Origin: Escherichia phage JLBYU32
Sequence record: OK272490.1
DNA length: 64,000 nucleotides
Strand: one strand, 5' to 3'
Of the stretch, positions 55,146-63,113 are shown piece by piece. The position numbers were made by a program, and so were the translations under genes. The notes beneath the pieces were generated by a model. It ran no database searches, was not told the origin of the DNA, and saw nothing but the letters and a program-made list of their open reading frames with translations. Position 1 is the first letter of the stretch, and the number at the start of each line of letters is the position of its first letter.

Positions 55146-57290
55146 ATGAACAAAGTACAGATTATTAAAAAGAATGGCTCACTTGAAGAACCTGATATCA
55201 AAAAAGTTTTAGCAGCAGTAACTAAGTCAGCTAACAGGGTTGGGTATAAAGAACTCCCACCAGATGTTACCCAAGCTCTTGAGTCAGCATTTATGAGGAT
55301 TCTGGTAAAGTCAACTAAGCAGAATAATTTACTCATCTCAGTCAATGATATTCACAGCATTGTTGAGGGTGCTTTGGCAGAAGTCAATCACGAGATTTAT
55401 GAGTCTTACTCAACATACAGAAATTACCGTAAAGAGGTTGCTCAAAATTGGGATGAACTCTACCAGAAGACTAAAGATACACTCTTCTTAGGTGACCGTG
55501 AAAATGCTAACTTTGACAGCAGTTTAATTTCTACGAAAGGTTCAATTATCCGTGGTTACCTGACTAAAGAAATCTTTAAACAGTATCATCTAACACCAGA
55601 GGAACTTGAAGCCATTGAAAAAGGGTTTATCTATATCCATGATTTAAGAGACCTGATTTTTGGTGGTATTAACTGTTGCCTGTTTGACATTGGTAAAGTA
55701 CTAAAAGGTGGCTTTGAAATGTCCGGCATTGAGTACTGTGAACCTAAATCTGTACTGTCAGCGTTGCAGGTTATTGGTGACGTAGTTCTTTCAGCAACTG
55801 CACAGCAATTTGGTGGCTTTACTTTAGCAGAGATTGATAAGGTACTTGTGCCGTATGCTAAGAAGTCTCTACGCTACCATGCTGAGAAAGCAGCATCTTA
55901 TGGTATTCCTAAAGAACATTACCACAATTATGTCATGGAGCAGCTACAAATTGAACTGACTCAAGGTTTCCAGTCACTTGAAATGAAACTAAACACTGTA
56001 CCTTGTAGCCGTGGGGATTTTGCATTCACAACTTTGACATTCGGGTTACTTGACTCAGATATGTCCAATGAAGATAACCGACTGCAATATATGATTGCAA
56101 GTACTCTCCTAGATGTTCGTATGAATGGACAAGGTAAGAGCAAGAAACCTGTTGTATTCCCTAAACTTGTTTATATTTATGACCAGAAGAGACATAATGA
56201 GAATATCTGTCAAGGCCACCTGTACAGTAAAGCTATAGAGTGTTGCTCTAAAGCAATGTATCCAGATTTCTTAAGTGTATCTGGTCATGGTGCTGTAGCA
56301 GAAGCTTTTGAGCGTTCTGGCAAGGTAATTTCGCCGATGGGTTGTAGAGCCTTCTTATCTCCATATCTTAATGAGGATGGGGAAGAGTTCTACGTTGGTC
56401 GTGCTAACATTGGTGCTGTATCTTTGAACTTACCAATGATTTACCAGTATTCTAAAGAGAATGGTTTAGATTTCTGGAAAGAGCTTGATAAGTACCTAGA
56501 GATGATTCGCAGCTTCCACAAGAAACGTTACGAAATGATTGCTAATATGCCAGCAAGTTCTAACCCTCTTGCATTCACACAAGGTGGTCTGTACAAAGGG
56601 ACTAAGAAACCTACTGACAGGGTTGGTTGGGATATTGTGAAATCCTTCACAGCTTCTTTTGGGGTTACTGCGCTTGATGAGCTATCTGTTCTTGCTGAAG
56701 GTAAACGACTTCATGAAGTTGGAAGCTGTAGTTTTGCATATGATGTTCTGGAATATATCAACATGAAGACTGAAGAGTTTAAAAATGAAGATGGCTTCTT
56801 ATATGCAGTCTATGGCACTCCAGCAGAATCACTTTGTGGAACTCAGCTAAAACAGTTCAGAGAAATGTTTGGTGTTATCAAAGGTGTCTCTGACAAGGAA
56901 TACTTTACAAATAGCTTCCATATGAATGTTGCAGCAGATATCTCACCATTTGAGAAGCAGGACTTAGAAGAACCCTTCTTCCATATCTGTAGAGGTGGCA
57001 GAATCCAGTATGTAAGGGTAGCTAACCCAGAAAACTTAACAGCACTTAAAAGTTGTATTACAAGAGGGATGTTGAAAGGTTTCTATCAGGGACTTAACTT
57101 TGACTTAGCAATCTGTGAACATTGTGGTAACAGACCAAAGGCTGATGTTGAAGAATGTGAGGTTTGTCATTCACATGATATCTCTGTGATTAACAGGGTT
57201 TGCGGGTACTTGTCATTCACAAAAATTAAAGGCCAGTCTCGAATGAATGACGCTAAGATGGCAGAAATTAAGGATAGGGTTTCTATGTAA
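55146..57290 (+). CDS. nrdD: anaerobic ribonucleotide reductase (class III)
   Basis: 714 aa; N-terminal ATP-cone, C-terminal CxxC cluster and glycyl-radical motif NRVCGYLS. Confidence 0.8.
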   Translation: MNKVQIIKKNGSLEEPDIKKVLAAVTKSANRVGYKELPPDVTQALESAFMRILVKSTKQNNLLISVNDIHSIVEGALAEVNHEIYESYSTYRNYRKEVAQNWDELYQKTKDTLFLGDRENANFDSSLISTKGSIIRGYLTKEIFKQYHLTPEELEAIEKGFIYIHDLRDLIFGGINCCLFDIGKVLKGGFEMSGIEYCEPKSVLSALQVIGDVVLSATAQQFGGFTLAEIDKVLVPYAKKSLRYHAEKAASYGIPKEHYHNYVMEQLQIELTQGFQSLEMKLNTVPCSRGDFAFTTLTFGLLDSDMSNEDNRLQYMIASTLLDVRMNGQGKSKKPVVFPKLVYIYDQKRHNENICQGHLYSKAIECCSKAMYPDFLSVSGHGAVAEAFERSGKVISPMGCRAFLSPYLNEDGEEFYVGRANIGAVSLNLPMIYQYSKENGLDFWKELDKYLEMIRSFHKKRYEMIANMPASSNPLAFTQGGLYKGTKKPTDRVGWDIVKSFTASFGVTALDELSVLAEGKRLHEVGSCSFAYDVLEYINMKTEEFKNEDGFLYAVYGTPAESLCGTQLKQFREMFGVIKGVSDKEYFTNSFHMNVAADISPFEKQDLEEPFFHICRGGRIQYVRVANPENLTALKSCITRGMLKGFYQGLNFDLAICEHCGNRPKADVEECEVCHSHDISVINRVCGYLSFTKIKGQSRMNDAKMAEIKDRVSM

Positions 57291-58342: not shown

Positions 58343-58828
58343 ATGAATTACATGGAGATTCGACCATTTGACACAGCTAATGGTGAAGGGGTTCGTGTAA
58401 GCCTCTTCGTAGCTGGTTGTAAGCATCACTGTGAAGGTTGCTTTAATAAGGAATCTTGGAAGTTTAATGCTGGTAAAGAGTTCACTTATGCAAACCTTTA
58501 TGGCATCATTAAGTTAATGGATGATAATGCCATCAGTGGGCTGTCAATACTTGGTGGAGAACCTCTGGATGATAGAAATATTCAAGAGGTTACCAACATA
58601 TGCAAACGTATTAAAACCGTTTACCCAGAAAAATCTATCTGGCTCTGGACAGGTTTTCAGTTACACGAAAAAATTCACCTAGATGTGATGAAATATGTTG
58701 ACGTGGTGATTGATGGTAAGTATGATTCATCTAAACCAACAGTTAAACCATATCGTGGTTCTGATAACCAAAACCTCTGGAGAAAAGAGTATGGGTGGCA
58801 AGGTGATTGTCAGTGGAGAGCAGAGTGA
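58343..58828 (+). CDS. nrdG: anaerobic ribonucleotide reductase activating protein (radical SAM)
   Basis: 161 aa; GCKHHCEGCFN cysteine cluster. Confidence 0.7.
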   Translation: MNYMEIRPFDTANGEGVRVSLFVAGCKHHCEGCFNKESWKFNAGKEFTYANLYGIIKLMDDNAISGLSILGGEPLDDRNIQEVTNICKRIKTVYPEKSIWLWTGFQLHEKIHLDVMKYVDVVIDGKYDSSKPTVKPYRGSDNQNLWRKEYGWQGDCQWRAE

Positions 58829-59529: not shown

Positions 59530-59560
59530 AAGGGAACTGTAAAGGTTCCCTTTTTATTTT
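59530..59560 (+). terminator. rho-independent terminator
   Basis: aagggaac-loop-gttccctt followed by TTTTATTTT. Confidence 0.5.
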
Positions 59561-59569
59561 GGAGATAAA

Positions 59570-60085
59570 ATGTATCTGTCAAACCTAAAACGTTCGGCTG
59601 CAATGTCAGTTCTAAGACTCAGCTTTGAGGAACGTCAAGAGTTCATTGACTCCCACCAATACGACCCTTCTAACTCAAATCACATGATTCTCTGGAATCG
59701 TGACAGTACTCGTGAAAGAGCACTATTCCGTTACTACCCACATTACACCATAGACAACCTGTATGAATGTTTTGTTGTGAAGAACACCATTACAGTACTC
59801 AATAAACTTTGCAGATACACAGGTAGTCAATCCTTCACATTAGGCCACCACAAACCTGTTACAAAGGGTGGTGAGCATCACTGTGCAAACTGGTTTATCC
59901 AGACTAAACTTGATAACCAGAAGCAAGGAGATAACCTTCTAAGCACACCTAAGATGACCTATGAAGAGCAAGAGAAATATATCAAAAATAATATGCCAGA
60001 TGTGCTTGACAACAACTATACAGATTTGGCAATATCTCTCCTGTTGAAGTTCGAGACAGTTTATAGGGCAACTTACAATGGCTAA
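59570..60085 (+). CDS. HNH endonuclease
   Basis: 171 aa; GHHKPVTKGGEHHCANW...N pattern. Confidence 0.45.
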   Translation: MYLSNLKRSAAMSVLRLSFEERQEFIDSHQYDPSNSNHMILWNRDSTRERALFRYYPHYTIDNLYECFVVKNTITVLNKLCRYTGSQSFTLGHHKPVTKGGEHHCANWFIQTKLDNQKQGDNLLSTPKMTYEEQEKYIKNNMPDVLDNNYTDLAISLLLKFETVYRATYNG

Positions 60086-60356
60086 AGAGAAGTGGGAGAT
60101 TTTACCATTAGTCAGTGAAGGCGGTAATGGTTGTGAAATGTACATGATACGTGGTCATATTCCAGAACCAATTGCACTTGAGATGGTAAACAACTTTACA
60201 GATGGCTCTTACAAAGACTTAGGAGAACCAACTGTCAAGCAACAATGGGTTAAACCTGTACCAGACAGCACAGGCAACTGTAGTGTACTTTACCACGTTG
60301 TAGACCCTGTAAAATGCAAATCTGCAATGGCAGTAACAAACGTAACTTTTGATTGA
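60078..60356 (+). CDS. hypothetical protein
   Basis: 92 aa ORF. Confidence 0.3.
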   Translation: MAKEKWEILPLVSEGGNGCEMYMIRGHIPEPIALEMVNNFTDGSYKDLGEPTVKQQWVKPVPDSTGNCSVLYHVVDPVKCKSAMAVTNVTFD

Positions 60357-60367
60357 GAGAGAAAACT

Positions 60368-61249
60368 ATGAAAACATCTATCCGTGTTACAATCCATTCA
60401 CCGACTAAAGGGACTCATGAAGAAGAGTTTAACATTATCCAATTTCCTTCTGGTGAGATTGGTGGACACTTTTCACAAGAGCTTGTTGATTTTACTGCTT
60501 ATGCAGCATCATCTATTAACAATGTGGTTATGATTGTAAAGGGTTATGACAAAGACACATTGTTTGCTGTGGCACTTGCTAAAGAAGCAATTGATGATTT
60601 AGTTCCTCATGATTATGCCCTGAAGACTGTCATTTTTTACTACTTACCAAATGCACGATATGACCGTCACATGTTTAAAGGTGATGCAGCAGCTTTAAAG
60701 GTTTTTGCTAAACAGGTGAATGCAATGGGATTTGGTGCAGTCTGTGCAGTTGACCCTCACAGTTACGTTCCAGATAACCTTTTCAATTGCTTCCAGAGTA
60801 TTCCTCAAAAGGAAATTGCAGTCCACTATGCAAATGACCCACTGATTGATTACTTAGTAGCCCCAGATGCAGGTGCTGCTAAGAAGATTGCAGAGACTGC
60901 TAAAGAGGTGGATAAACCATATATCACAATGTCTAAAGTACGCAACCTTAAGACTGGTGAAATTACTGGTATGCGAATCCTTGATGATGTTGATTTGACA
61001 GATAAAACCGTCATGATTCTGGATGATATCTGTGATGGTGGTCGAACCTTCATAGAAGCAGCTAAACATCTTCGTGAAGCAGGTGCAAAACGTGTGGAAC
61101 TCTATGTAACACACGGTATCTTCTCTAAAGATGTTGAAAACCTTCTTGACAATGGCATTGACCACATCTACACTACAAACTCTTTAGGGGAAGCTAAAGA
61201 CCGTGGCTTAACACATTATGGTCAAGTTACTGTAGCAAACCTTGATTGA
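60368..61249 (+). CDS. ribose-phosphate pyrophosphokinase family protein (Prs-like; PRPP synthetase or ADP-ribose pyrophosphokinase-type)
   Basis: FPSGEIGG N-terminal motif, AVDPHS and PRTase-type loop VMILDDICDGGRT; start at ATG 60368 with gagagag SD. Confidence 0.65.
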   Translation: MKTSIRVTIHSPTKGTHEEEFNIIQFPSGEIGGHFSQELVDFTAYAASSINNVVMIVKGYDKDTLFAVALAKEAIDDLVPHDYALKTVIFYYLPNARYDRHMFKGDAAALKVFAKQVNAMGFGAVCAVDPHSYVPDNLFNCFQSIPQKEIAVHYANDPLIDYLVAPDAGAAKKIAETAKEVDKPYITMSKVRNLKTGEITGMRILDDVDLTDKTVMILDDICDGGRTFIEAAKHLREAGAKRVELYVTHGIFSKDVENLLDNGIDHIYTTNSLGEAKDRGLTHYGQVTVANLD

Positions 61250-61258
61250 AACTTTATA

Positions 61259-61280
61259 GGGGCTTAAAAGCCCCATTTTG
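61259..61280 (+). terminator. short hairpin plus T-tract between Prs-like and Nampt-like genes
   Basis: ggggctt-aaa-aagcccc followed by ATTTT. Confidence 0.35.
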
Positions 61281-61294
61281 AGAGAGATTAAAAG

Positions 61295-63076
61295 ATGACT
61301 AAATCACTTTATGCAGTACCAGCAGGTTTAAACGCAGATGCTTACAAATCTGGTCATGTTTACCAGTACCCTAGTGCAACAGAGTACTTGATGTTCAACC
61401 TGACACCACGTAGTGACAAATGGTTTAACAGCCCCTTAGCAATTGATGGTGTAGTAGCTTTTGGTATTCAACGTTTCGTTAAAGATTACTTGATAGACCA
61501 CTGGAACGCCACTTTCTTTGAACGTGATAAAAAAGAAGCCATTGATGAAATCTTAGAAGTCATGAATGGTGTTCTGGGTAAAGATGCTATCGGTCGAGAG
61601 CATTGGGAAGCACTTCACGACTTAGGTTATCTACCAGTTGAAGTATACGCTGTAGAAGAAGGTACAGTTGTTCCTATGCGTGTACCAATGATTGTCTTCC
61701 AGAACACTGTTTCAGGTTTCCATTGGGTAGCGGGATATCTGGAAGATGCTTTCTCTGCTGAGATTTGGAAGGCTTGTACCATTGCAACTATTGCATTGCA
61801 TTATAAACGAATCTGTAAGAAGTGGGCTGACCTTACTTGCGACAATGACTTACATTTACCTTATCAGTGCCATGACTTTGCTATGCGTGGTATGTCCGGC
61901 TTTACTGATGACGCATTTAACGCTGTAGGCCACTTAACCAGCTTTAAAGGGACTGATAGCTTCCCTGCTGTATATACAGCTAAACGCATCTACGGACAGT
62001 CTTACCCAGTCTCTGATATTGGTGGTTCTGTACCAGCCACTGAACACTCTGTAATGTGTGCAAACATTGCTTGGGAAGGTGGTAATGAGTTGGTTGAAGA
62101 AGAAAGACGCTTTAAAGGTGAGTTGCAAACCTTCCGTCGCTTCTTAACAGAAACTTATCCAACTGGTATTGCAAGTGTTGTTTCAGACACTTATAACTTC
62201 TGGAGAACTGTGTCAGAAATCTTACCAGCACTCCGTAAAGAAATTATGGAACGTGATGGCAAACTGGTAATTCGTCCTGACTCTGGAGACCCTGTACACA
62301 TTGTCACAGGTTATAAAGCAATCCACTTAGAGTGTGCTAAAAAGGCTTATTATGAGCACCTAAGCAATCTGGAAGCCAGTGACACAATGCTGAATGCTGT
62401 TCTGAACATGAAGCTTGAAAACATCAGCTATGGTATTGCTGGATGGCTACTGTCAGAAGGCTACGAAATGGTTGTTGACAGAGAAGACTTTGAAGTTGCT
62501 GATACAGTGATGTTGAAGAACGCTTATATGGTTGGTTCTGCAAACGTTGTAACACGCCCTGTAGCAGAGATTGATGGAGCTATTAAGACCTTGTATAACA
62601 TCTTTGGAGGAACTATTAACTCTAAAGGTTTTAAGGTACTGGATGAGCACATTGGCCTTATCTATGGCGACTCTATCACGTTGGAACGTGCAAACGAAAT
62701 CCTGAAGCGTCTGTATGAAATGGGGTTTGCAAGCTCTAACGTGGTGTTTGGTGTAGGCTCTTACACTTACCAGTACATGACTCGTGACACCTTTGCATTT
62801 GCTGTCAAAGCAACTCTTGCAAGCATTGGTGGCAAAGAGATTATGCTTGCAAAAGACCCTAAAACAGATAGTGGTGTTAAGAAATCTGCCTTTGGTGGTG
62901 TAGCACCTATGTGGGATGGTGAGAATTTGAAAGCTGTAGATGGCTATGGATTCCAGAGCTTTGCAGATGCACTTGAACATCCAGCTTGTGCTTTACGTTT
63001 AGTCTTTAGCGACTCTGAGCAGTACGGTTACACAACTCTTGGTGATATTCGAAATAATATTGACAAGCAGCTTTAA
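61295..63076 (+). CDS. nicotinamide phosphoribosyltransferase family protein (Nampt/NadV-like)
   Basis: 593 aa; family call from overall similarity to NadV/Nampt-type phosphoribosyltransferases by recall, not a search; SD gagagag. Confidence 0.55.
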   Translation: MTKSLYAVPAGLNADAYKSGHVYQYPSATEYLMFNLTPRSDKWFNSPLAIDGVVAFGIQRFVKDYLIDHWNATFFERDKKEAIDEILEVMNGVLGKDAIGREHWEALHDLGYLPVEVYAVEEGTVVPMRVPMIVFQNTVSGFHWVAGYLEDAFSAEIWKACTIATIALHYKRICKKWADLTCDNDLHLPYQCHDFAMRGMSGFTDDAFNAVGHLTSFKGTDSFPAVYTAKRIYGQSYPVSDIGGSVPATEHSVMCANIAWEGGNELVEEERRFKGELQTFRRFLTETYPTGIASVVSDTYNFWRTVSEILPALRKEIMERDGKLVIRPDSGDPVHIVTGYKAIHLECAKKAYYEHLSNLEASDTMLNAVLNMKLENISYGIAGWLLSEGYEMVVDREDFEVADTVMLKNAYMVGSANVVTRPVAEIDGAIKTLYNIFGGTINSKGFKVLDEHIGLIYGDSITLERANEILKRLYEMGFASSNVVFGVGSYTYQYMTRDTFAFAVKATLASIGGKEIMLAKDPKTDSGVKKSAFGGVAPMWDGENLKAVDGYGFQSFADALEHPACALRLVFSDSEQYGYTTLGDIRNNIDKQL

Positions 63077-63089
63077 AAGTATATGATAA

Positions 63090-63113
63090 GAGGCTCCTAC
63101 GGGAGCCTTTTTA
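63090..63113 (+). terminator. rho-independent terminator
   Basis: aggctcc-tacg-ggagcct followed by TTTT. Confidence 0.55.

Follow-up and report, generated by a model that had tools for sequence, protein, structure and literature searches.

Do two adjacent genes of Escherichia phage JLBYU32 form a counter-defence module that rebuilds nicotinamide adenine dinucleotide (NAD+), or are they an ordinary salvage pair? The question arises from a sequence-only reading of 64,000 nucleotides of this phage (record OK272490.1; the whole stretch is called the window below). In that reading a gene of the ribose-phosphate pyrophosphokinase (Prs) family lay directly upstream of a gene of the nicotinamide phosphoribosyltransferase (Nampt) family, with a small hairpin between them. 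Two options were offered, an NAD+ reconstitution pathway directed against NAD+-depleting defences and a plain phosphoribosyl pyrophosphate (PRPP) synthetase paired with the salvage enzyme NadV. We conclude that the pair is almost certainly the two-gene NARP1 operon (Adps and Namat) of a Felixounavirus, rebuilding NAD+ from ADP-ribose (ADPR) and nicotinamide. The two genes are as follows.

60368..61249, plus strand: adps, ADPR-pyrophosphate synthetase of the Prs family, predicted, 293 aa from ATG (MKTSIRV...)
61295..63076, plus strand: namat, nicotinamide ADPR-transferase of the Nampt family, predicted, 593 aa

According to the list of open reading frames (ORFs) both genes are read from the plus strand and are separated by a spacer of 45 nt. 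The gene order described in the sequence-only reading was borne out by ORFs, motifs and Pfam alike. The phosphoribosyltransferase (PRTase) loop motif VMILDDICDGGRT and FPSGE were confirmed in the Prs-like protein, and TVMILDDICDGGRTF and IIQFPSGEIGG were both found in its translation. Pfam assigned this protein to Pribosyltran (1.2e-11) and Pribosyl_synth (4.7e-10), and the Nampt-like protein to NAPRTase (5.3e-35) and NAMPT_N (2.3e-5); the PHROGs families of the pair are phrog_619 (7e-97) and phrog_448 (9e-203). In megablast searches the region matched Felix O1-like myoviruses of E. coli and Salmonella (Felixounavirus), with SP22 at the top (98.3%) and wV8 next (97.4%). Such a pair is far beyond chance: 233 phage records conserve it along 80% or more of its length.

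NARP1 was discovered after a Prs-like/Nampt-like pair had been spotted in four BASEL phages, and genes 79-80 of phage Bas63 were deleted (Osterman et al., bioRxiv 10.1101/2024.02.11.579819). Bas63 (Escherichia phage JohannRWettstein, MZ501086.1) is a Felixounavirus, as is the phage of the window. Its genes 79 and 80 encode proteins of 293 and 593 aa, their 45-nt spacer holds the same hairpin, and the synteny is like that of the window (nrdD, nrdG, several small genes, 77, 78, 79, 80, 81). Namat is identical to Bas63 gp80 at 580 of 593 positions (98%), with clamp loop and clamp helix unchanged, and Adps is identical to gp79 at 229 of 293 (78%), the C-terminal half being nearly identical. Adps is closer still to its homologues in SP22 (288/293 identical) and wV8 (284/293). 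Both of these are listed with a Namat within 10 genes in Supplementary Table 1 of the same study, and the Namat homologues of wV8 and SP22 are listed there as Adps-associated. The pair is thus already known, as a NARP1 copy in the genus where the pathway was discovered, with near-identical proteins in the tables of the original paper. Identity with Bas63, in lengths, spacer and synteny as well as in sequence, upholds the counter-defence architecture that the sequence-only reading had offered as one of its two options. The ATG of adps at 60368 has GAGAGAG just before it, and the identical start is annotated in Bas63, wV8 and other relatives. An alternative TTG start at 60353 was rejected; it overlaps the stop of the preceding gene and is used by no annotated relative.

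The published experiments define what such a pair can do (10.1101/2024.02.11.579819). Deletion of genes 79-80 from Bas63 gave about 20-fold fewer plaques on cells carrying SIR2-HerA, with a deeper depletion of NAD+. The rescue was independent of host pncC and nadR, and ADPR-pyrophosphate (ADPR-PP) was seen in Bas63-infected cells only with the operon present. The purified enzymes of the Bacillus phage SpbetaL1 (Adps WIT26982.1), which has the same two-gene Adps-Namat operon and the same Namat fold, catalyzed the two steps. Adps made ADPR-PP from ADPR and ATP, while the substrate of canonical Prs gave no product in measurable amounts; Namat made NAD+ from ADPR-PP and nicotinamide, and formed only NAD+ when offered both substrates. 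The mutants Adps K162A and Namat R306G were inactive. When co-expressed, NARP1 overcame several systems that deplete NAD+; type II Thoeris was not among them. Enzyme activities have been demonstrated for the proteins of SpbetaL1, Paenibacillus foliorum and DyoEdafos.

To place the Prs-like protein, a neighbour-joining tree and hidden Markov models (HMMs) were built from 15 Namat-associated sequences and 7 bacterial Prs of the published table, with E. coli Prs added; Prs is thinly sampled, archaeal class III Prs is left out of the tree, and no Felixounavirus sequence went into the Adps-HMM. The window protein and the Namat-associated proteins split from Prs in 200/200 bootstraps. Window Adps scored 239.9 bits with the Adps-HMM vs. 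71.2 with the Prs-HMM, and for E. coli Prs the order was reversed (144 vs. 495). All NCBIfam Prs equivalog cut-offs were failed by Adps: NF002095 gave 104 bits vs. 296, NF002320 gave 90 vs. 297, and the remaining models gave 42-63 bits vs. cut-offs of 438-536. Only the broad subfamily model TIGR01251 was just passed (121.7 vs. 113). The control, E. coli Prs, scored 533 bits. E. coli Prs (b1207) has the superfamily, the fold and the PRTase loop in common with Adps, at 25% identity, but the two differ in the catalytic flexible loop (RNLKTGEI in Adps vs. RRPRANVS) and at two further sites (APDAGAAKK vs. SPDIGGVVR and DDICDGGRT vs. DDMIDTGGT). The catalytic lysine is retained:

60935-60937, plus strand: Lys190 of the Adps catalytic loop, aligned with SpbetaL1 K162

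K190 stands in ITMSKVRNLKT, which aligns with LVGHKQRNFHT around SpbetaL1 K162. By tree, profiles and motifs the Prs-like protein is assigned to the Namat-associated Adps clade, apart from housekeeping Prs.

The second protein gave a corresponding result. Among solved structures its best matches were SpbetaL1 Namat (9W5W/9W5X, 429 bits), followed by Haemophilus ducreyi NadV (HdNadV, 9KE8, 350 bits), the Nampt-type chain 7yqo (180 bits) and human NAMPT (141 bits). An AlphaFold2 model (pLDDT 93.9, pTM 0.91) retrieved the Namat crystals as its top Foldseek match, with a TM score of 0.95 normalised to the target. The residues that contact nicotinamide, ribose and AMP are all kept (D15, Y17, F195, R198, D221, A248, H251, R327, D329, G458 and D459); among them F195, R198, D221, R327, D329 and H251 correspond to F189, R192, D215, R306, D308 and the catalytic His of SpbetaL1 Namat. 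Lan et al. (NAR 2026, PMC12774641), who solved SpbetaL1 Namat (9W5X, 9W5W), ascribe selectivity to a clamp with two parts, the variable loop SCL and the helix SCH. Both parts were located in the window:

61418..61423, plus strand: predicted selectivity-clamp loop (SCL), Namat K42-W43, with K42 aligned to SpbetaL1 R40
62756..62788, plus strand: predicted selectivity-clamp helix (SCH), Namat G488-D498, GSYTYQYMTRD

The helix reads GSFTYQYNTRD in SpbetaL1 Namat, whereas HdNadV (GAQTYQRNTRD) and the Nampt-type 7yqo (GGALLQKVDRD) are both without the clamp aromatics. In the loop, the window has K42-W43 where SpbetaL1 Namat has R40. In the published AlphaFold3 model of Bas63 Namat the residue after the Lys stacks on the adenine, and since residues 1-60 of the window Namat are identical to those of Bas63, W43 may be the adenine-stacking residue of the clamp loop here. 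Superfamilies, folds, the PRTase loop, the DxHS motif and the Nampt catalytic residues are common to the window pair and to the canonical set of Prs with Nampt/NadV (human NAMPT, H. ducreyi NadV 9KE8). The clamp motif points to a Namat-type enzyme specialised for ADPR-PP, not a PRPP-specific Nampt or NadV. Orthology, membership in the two clades and conservation of the functional residues were thus observed directly for the window pair. The sequence-only reading had also held that sequence alone could not tell its two options apart. It can, because the literature of 2024-2026 supplies the Adps clade, apart from Prs, and the clamp motif that sets Namat apart from Nampt/NadV. The comparison of profiles and structures that it proposed placed neither protein in a housekeeping clade: the first falls in the Adps clade and the second best matches the Namat crystals.

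In the proposed mechanism Adps, a diverged relative of PRPP synthetase, would use ATP to put a pyrophosphate on the free ribose of ADPR, yielding ADPR-PP. Namat, a diverged Nampt, would then replace this pyrophosphate with nicotinamide, giving NAD+ directly. ADPR and nicotinamide are the debris that NAD+-cleaving effectors leave (SIR2-HerA/Nezha, type I Thoeris, DSR1/2, SIR2-pAgo and others), and with NAD+ rebuilt from this debris the phage would therefore escape abortive infection. The particular allele pair of the window, a wV8-type Adps and an insertion-bearing Namat, is expected from its sequence to have NARP1 activity and should behave like the tested enzymes.

Several points weigh against this interpretation. 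The biochemistry comes from SpbetaL1 proteins that are 30% (Adps) and, over the aligned part, 48% (Namat) identical to those of the window, the Adps of Bas63 itself could not be purified (10.1101/2024.02.11.579819), and the crystallised SpbetaL1 Namat is without an 88-aa insertion present in the window protein. The N-terminal half of Adps is another allele than that of Bas63 (68% nucleotide identity). The PDB matches of Adps included no Adps structure, the best being archaeal Prs at about 1e-17. For this exact phage, activity and anti-defence effect are predicted from orthology. Namat also keeps a PRPP to nicotinamide mononucleotide (NMN) activity in vitro, and some NMN formation is possible (10.1101/2024.02.11.579819; PMC12774641).

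This last activity is one of the arguments for a plain salvage pair, in which a true PRPP synthetase would convert ribose-5-phosphate to PRPP and a NadV/Nampt enzyme would make NMN, with NAD+ completed by host NadR and PncC. Salvage is also what every annotated public record says and what Pfam and NCBIfam would assign; with 469 bits vs. a cut-off of 405, NF006629, the equivalog for 'nicotinate phosphoribosyltransferase', accepts the second protein, although this model does not separate Namat from NadV. We nevertheless consider salvage very improbable. The first protein falls in the Adps clade and below every Prs equivalog cut-off, and SpbetaL1 Adps converted ADPR and ATP to ADPR-PP while giving nothing measurable with the canonical Prs substrate. 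The second protein bears an ADPR-PP clamp that is missing in HdNadV and Nampt, and Namat given both substrates made NAD+ alone. A different proposal accepts the same chemistry and alters its main purpose: ADPR from routine NAD+ use would be recycled for the nucleotide and DNA metabolism of the phage, with counter-defence as a by-product. The pair does close a nucleotide-metabolism block (nrdD and nrdG, with nrdA/nrdB upstream in Bas63), and the homologous Adps-Namat pairs of bacteria, with core genes around them and the ADPR-responsive NrtR as regulator, have a housekeeping-like setting. Against this, the Bas63 deletion had a reported phenotype only in cells that carry a defence (10.1101/2024.02.11.579819), co-expressed NARP1 cancels the effect of several systems that deplete NAD+ and not that of type II Thoeris, and phage NARP1 operons pick up anti-defence accessories, the Adpp phosphatase and RyDEP. 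Recycling as the main purpose is compatible with the NARP1 assignment, and we judge it unlikely.

Comparison with related systems defines which version of NARP1 the window carries. The core of Adps and Namat is common to the window, to NARP1-AP of Vibrio phage Gary, which adds the Macro-domain phosphatase Adpp, and to the RyDEP-extended NARP1 of mycobacteriophage DyoEdafos, which adds a RyR-domain glycosidase. Neither an Adpp (Macro) nor a RyDEP (RyR) domain was detected by Pfam or PHROGs in the genes flanking the pair, and because of this the pair is classed as core two-gene NARP1. Following the published reasoning, the phage would be exposed to aRES-type defence, the product of which is ADPR-1''-phosphate, and would not convert cyclic ADPR signals. 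NARP2 (NadV-NatV of Vibrio phage KVP40) resembles the window in using a Nampt-family enzyme and in countering NAD+ depletion. It differs in working through PRPP and an NMN intermediate with an Nmnat partner, where the window has an Adps partner and a Nampt homologue with a predicted ADPR-PP clamp. Pfam and PHROGs found no Nmnat, NadM or NatV domain in four upstream and two downstream neighbours of the pair, and the Bas63 annotation has none from 30 to 70 kb.

The divergence of Adps from its Bas63 counterpart is confined to one part of the gene:

60368..60817, plus strand: N-terminal half of adps (aa 1-150), where the allele is deeply diverged from that of Bas63

Over this segment nucleotide identity with Bas63 is 0.68, dS is 2.1 and dN/dS is 0.12, whereas for namat and the gene on the other side identity is about 0.95 and dS 0.2. 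The segment is under purifying selection, as its dN/dS shows. In the Adps of Felix O1 an N-terminus of the Bas63 type is joined to a middle section of the window type. The pattern of alleles marks the adps locus as a recombination mosaic of old alleles within the genus. The NARP1 literature, as far as searched, is silent on a mosaic Adps and on the insertion in Namat.

That insertion is the main structural feature in which the window Namat departs from its relatives:

62312..62575, plus strand: lineage-specific insertion subdomain of Namat, aa 340-427, 88 aa

It is missing in SpbetaL1 Namat, in Nampt and in the bacterial homologues; relative to SpbetaL1 Namat the window protein also has an 11-aa insert at 268-278. 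The 88-aa insertion occurs only inside Namat genes, in 253 phage records of Ounavirinae type, and its site is hypervariable, with lengths from 16 to 94 residues and 29% identity vs. 63% in the core. It folds confidently, both within the full-length model (pLDDT 94-97) and alone (pLDDT 91, pTM 0.80), and no fold relative was found for it. In Shigella phage Ag3 an ORF (FJ373894_00125, Table S1 of Osterman et al.) fuses about 230 aa of Adps to a C-terminal Namat whose own insertion, at the same hotspot, is unrelated to that of the window. This ORF is either a real fusion/deletion or an artefact of assembly or annotation. The PHROG phrog_12872 (547 positions) likewise matches Adps in its first half and Namat in its second.

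The small hairpin that the sequence-only reading had placed between the genes was found within the 45-nt spacer (61250-61294):

61259-61274, plus strand: hairpin GGGGCT-TAAA-AGCCCC

It is followed by ATTTT and then by the ribosome-binding site of namat, GAGAGAG. A 56-nt spacer segment folds at -12.6 kcal/mol (z = -2.6), and 3/200 shuffles do as well. In seven sequences from Felixounavirus, Suspvirus and Mooglevirus the core stem GGGGC/GCCCC is invariant, with variation confined to the flanks and two loop positions. Because the stem never varies, covariation support is absent; conservation is thereby established, and structure is not proven. We do not call the hairpin a terminator, since its T-run is too short. 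Rfam returned no match to it, only chance matches below threshold (E 0.38-0.55). Conceivably it acts as a weak attenuator or in RNA stability, or is what remains of a homing site. The spacer is also a polymorphic insertion site: a free-standing 492-nt gene for an HNH homing endonuclease occupies it in VpaE1 (L004, 2391-2882), Felix O1, pinkbiff, Moogle and others, where it displaces the hairpin and keeps the namat ribosome-binding site.

Around the pair the following features were recorded.

55146-57290: nrdD, part of the nucleotide-metabolism block before the pair, an uninterrupted 714-aa ORF
58343-58828: nrdG, part of the same block
59530-59552: terminator-like site before the 171-aa gene
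59570..60356, plus strand: two small genes (171 aa and 92 aa) directly 5' of adps
63088-63111, plus strand: intrinsic-terminator-like hairpin just 3' of namat, a 10-bp stem followed by a T-run, in a region that folds at -16.9 kcal/mol

The two small genes share 8 nt, and the second stops 11 nt short of adps; because of this tight packing they are probably co-transcribed with adps. The 171-aa product belongs to phrog_3500, with weak similarity to HNH endonucleases, and the 92-aa product to phrog_4726, both of them families of unknown function. Pfam detected no Macro or RyR domain in either, and no connection with NAD+ was found for them. A role as NARP1 accessories was set aside, since no domain related to ADPR was found in them and nothing beyond genes 79-80 was needed for the phenotype in Bas63. 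The hairpin at 63088-63111 is probably the end of the transcription unit. Together with the site at 59530-59552 it brackets four genes (171 aa, 92 aa, adps and namat), which would make up one transcript. A promoter scan was uninformative, with 16 sites vs. 12.9 +/- 3.6 expected from shuffles, and no promoter is claimed.

Relatives of the window vary in gene content at this locus. The annotation of Bas63 joins nrdD from two pieces, between which a homing-endonuclease gene is inserted (L002, 16631-19517), whereas the nrdD of the window is uninterrupted; this is a further presence/absence polymorphism of a mobile endonuclease in the gene block. A metagenomic relative (L087, 1097-2047), with Namat 100% and Adps 98% identical to those of the window, has two tandem paralogous genes of phrog_29478 (154 and 150 aa, function unknown) between the 92-aa gene and adps, and these are absent from the window. 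Two records with other host labels, MG065664.1 ('Campylobacter phage A132') and GU169904.1 ('Staphylococcus phage SA1'), bear this locus of Felixounavirus with 92-93% identity. Such hosts are implausible, and the records are probably contaminated or mislabelled.

Homologues of the pair also occur in bacterial chromosomes. Klebsiella, Cronobacter, Kosakonia and Erwinia have on their chromosomes the nearest insertion-free homologues of the window Namat, 46-49% identical and all with the clamp motif. In K. michiganensis, namat follows a 289-aa gene of Adps type (Adps-HMM 235 bits vs. Prs-HMM 106), and the two adjoin a divergent gene for a regulator with NUDIX and NrtR_WHD domains, among core genes. 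The spacer there carries two tandem GT-N7-AC palindromes, operators of the NrtR type. A scan of named bacterial genomes gave at least 584 relatives, of which the best 80 loci were taken and 78 were analysable; these are the nearest relatives of one query and not a random sample of bacterial NadV. In all 78, a clamp-bearing Namat is accompanied within 5 kb by a gene of Adps type, not of Prs type, and by a gene for NrtR; adps was immediately upstream of namat in 76. Pfam confirmed the NrtR call in each of eight loci that were spot-checked. Bacterial loci of this kind were recorded at these intervals, among others:

L005, 4211-7491: bacterial adps-namat locus
L069, 4016-7375: the corresponding locus of A. 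baylyi

The A. baylyi order adps-namat-nrtR is that of the '#prs-nadV-nrtR' operon described by Rodionov et al. 2008 (PMC2330246). In that study, whose gel-shift assays used an operon of Shewanella oneidensis, NrtR bound the operators of prs-nadV operons, ADPR was the best anti-repressor, and the presence of a dedicated prs paralog went unexplained. A bacterial NARP1 has been reported from Paenibacillus foliorum (PMC12774641), and the NARP1 authors go no further than a hint at a possible housekeeping or regulatory use. In the searchable literature no paper that names NARP1, Namat or ADPR-PP also names NrtR. The bacterial pairs differ from the phage copy in having the ADPR-sensing NrtR repressor and GT-N7-AC operators, where the phage copy is without a regulator, and in a Namat that lacks the insertion subdomain.

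We propose that the phage pair has its ancestry and chemistry in common with nrtR-adps-namat, a widespread operon of bacterial chromosomes, and that the 'prs-nadV' operon is itself an ADPR-inducible route from ADPR and nicotinamide to NAD+; our confidence in this proposal is evenly divided. Should it hold, the two alternatives of the sequence-only reading would be one pathway, a conclusion to which we likewise give a middling chance. The retention of PRPP activity by Namat in vitro is a caveat. If true, the proposal would explain the puzzle from 2008, an ADPR-sensing repressor placed over a dedicated 'prs' paralog and nadV, and bacteria would gain a direct route for recycling ADPR to NAD+. This link to NrtR and the insertion domain of Namat are the only leads that we consider worth following.

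For the window itself the main value of the analysis is a correction of annotation. The genes of the pair appear in public records as prs, nadR, hpt, pncB, nadV, ribose-phosphate pyrophosphokinase, nicotin(am)ide phosphoribosyltransferase or 'hypothetical'. NCBIfam release 20 contains no model for Adps or Namat, and Namat passes the nicotinate phosphoribosyltransferase equivalog; pipelines therefore keep misnaming an anti-defence operon. Typing and therapy both make use of Felix O1-like phages. The presence of NARP1 predicts that they would resist SIR2-HerA, type I Thoeris and DSR systems, and the absence of the Adpp phosphatase predicts that they would remain sensitive to systems of the aRES type.

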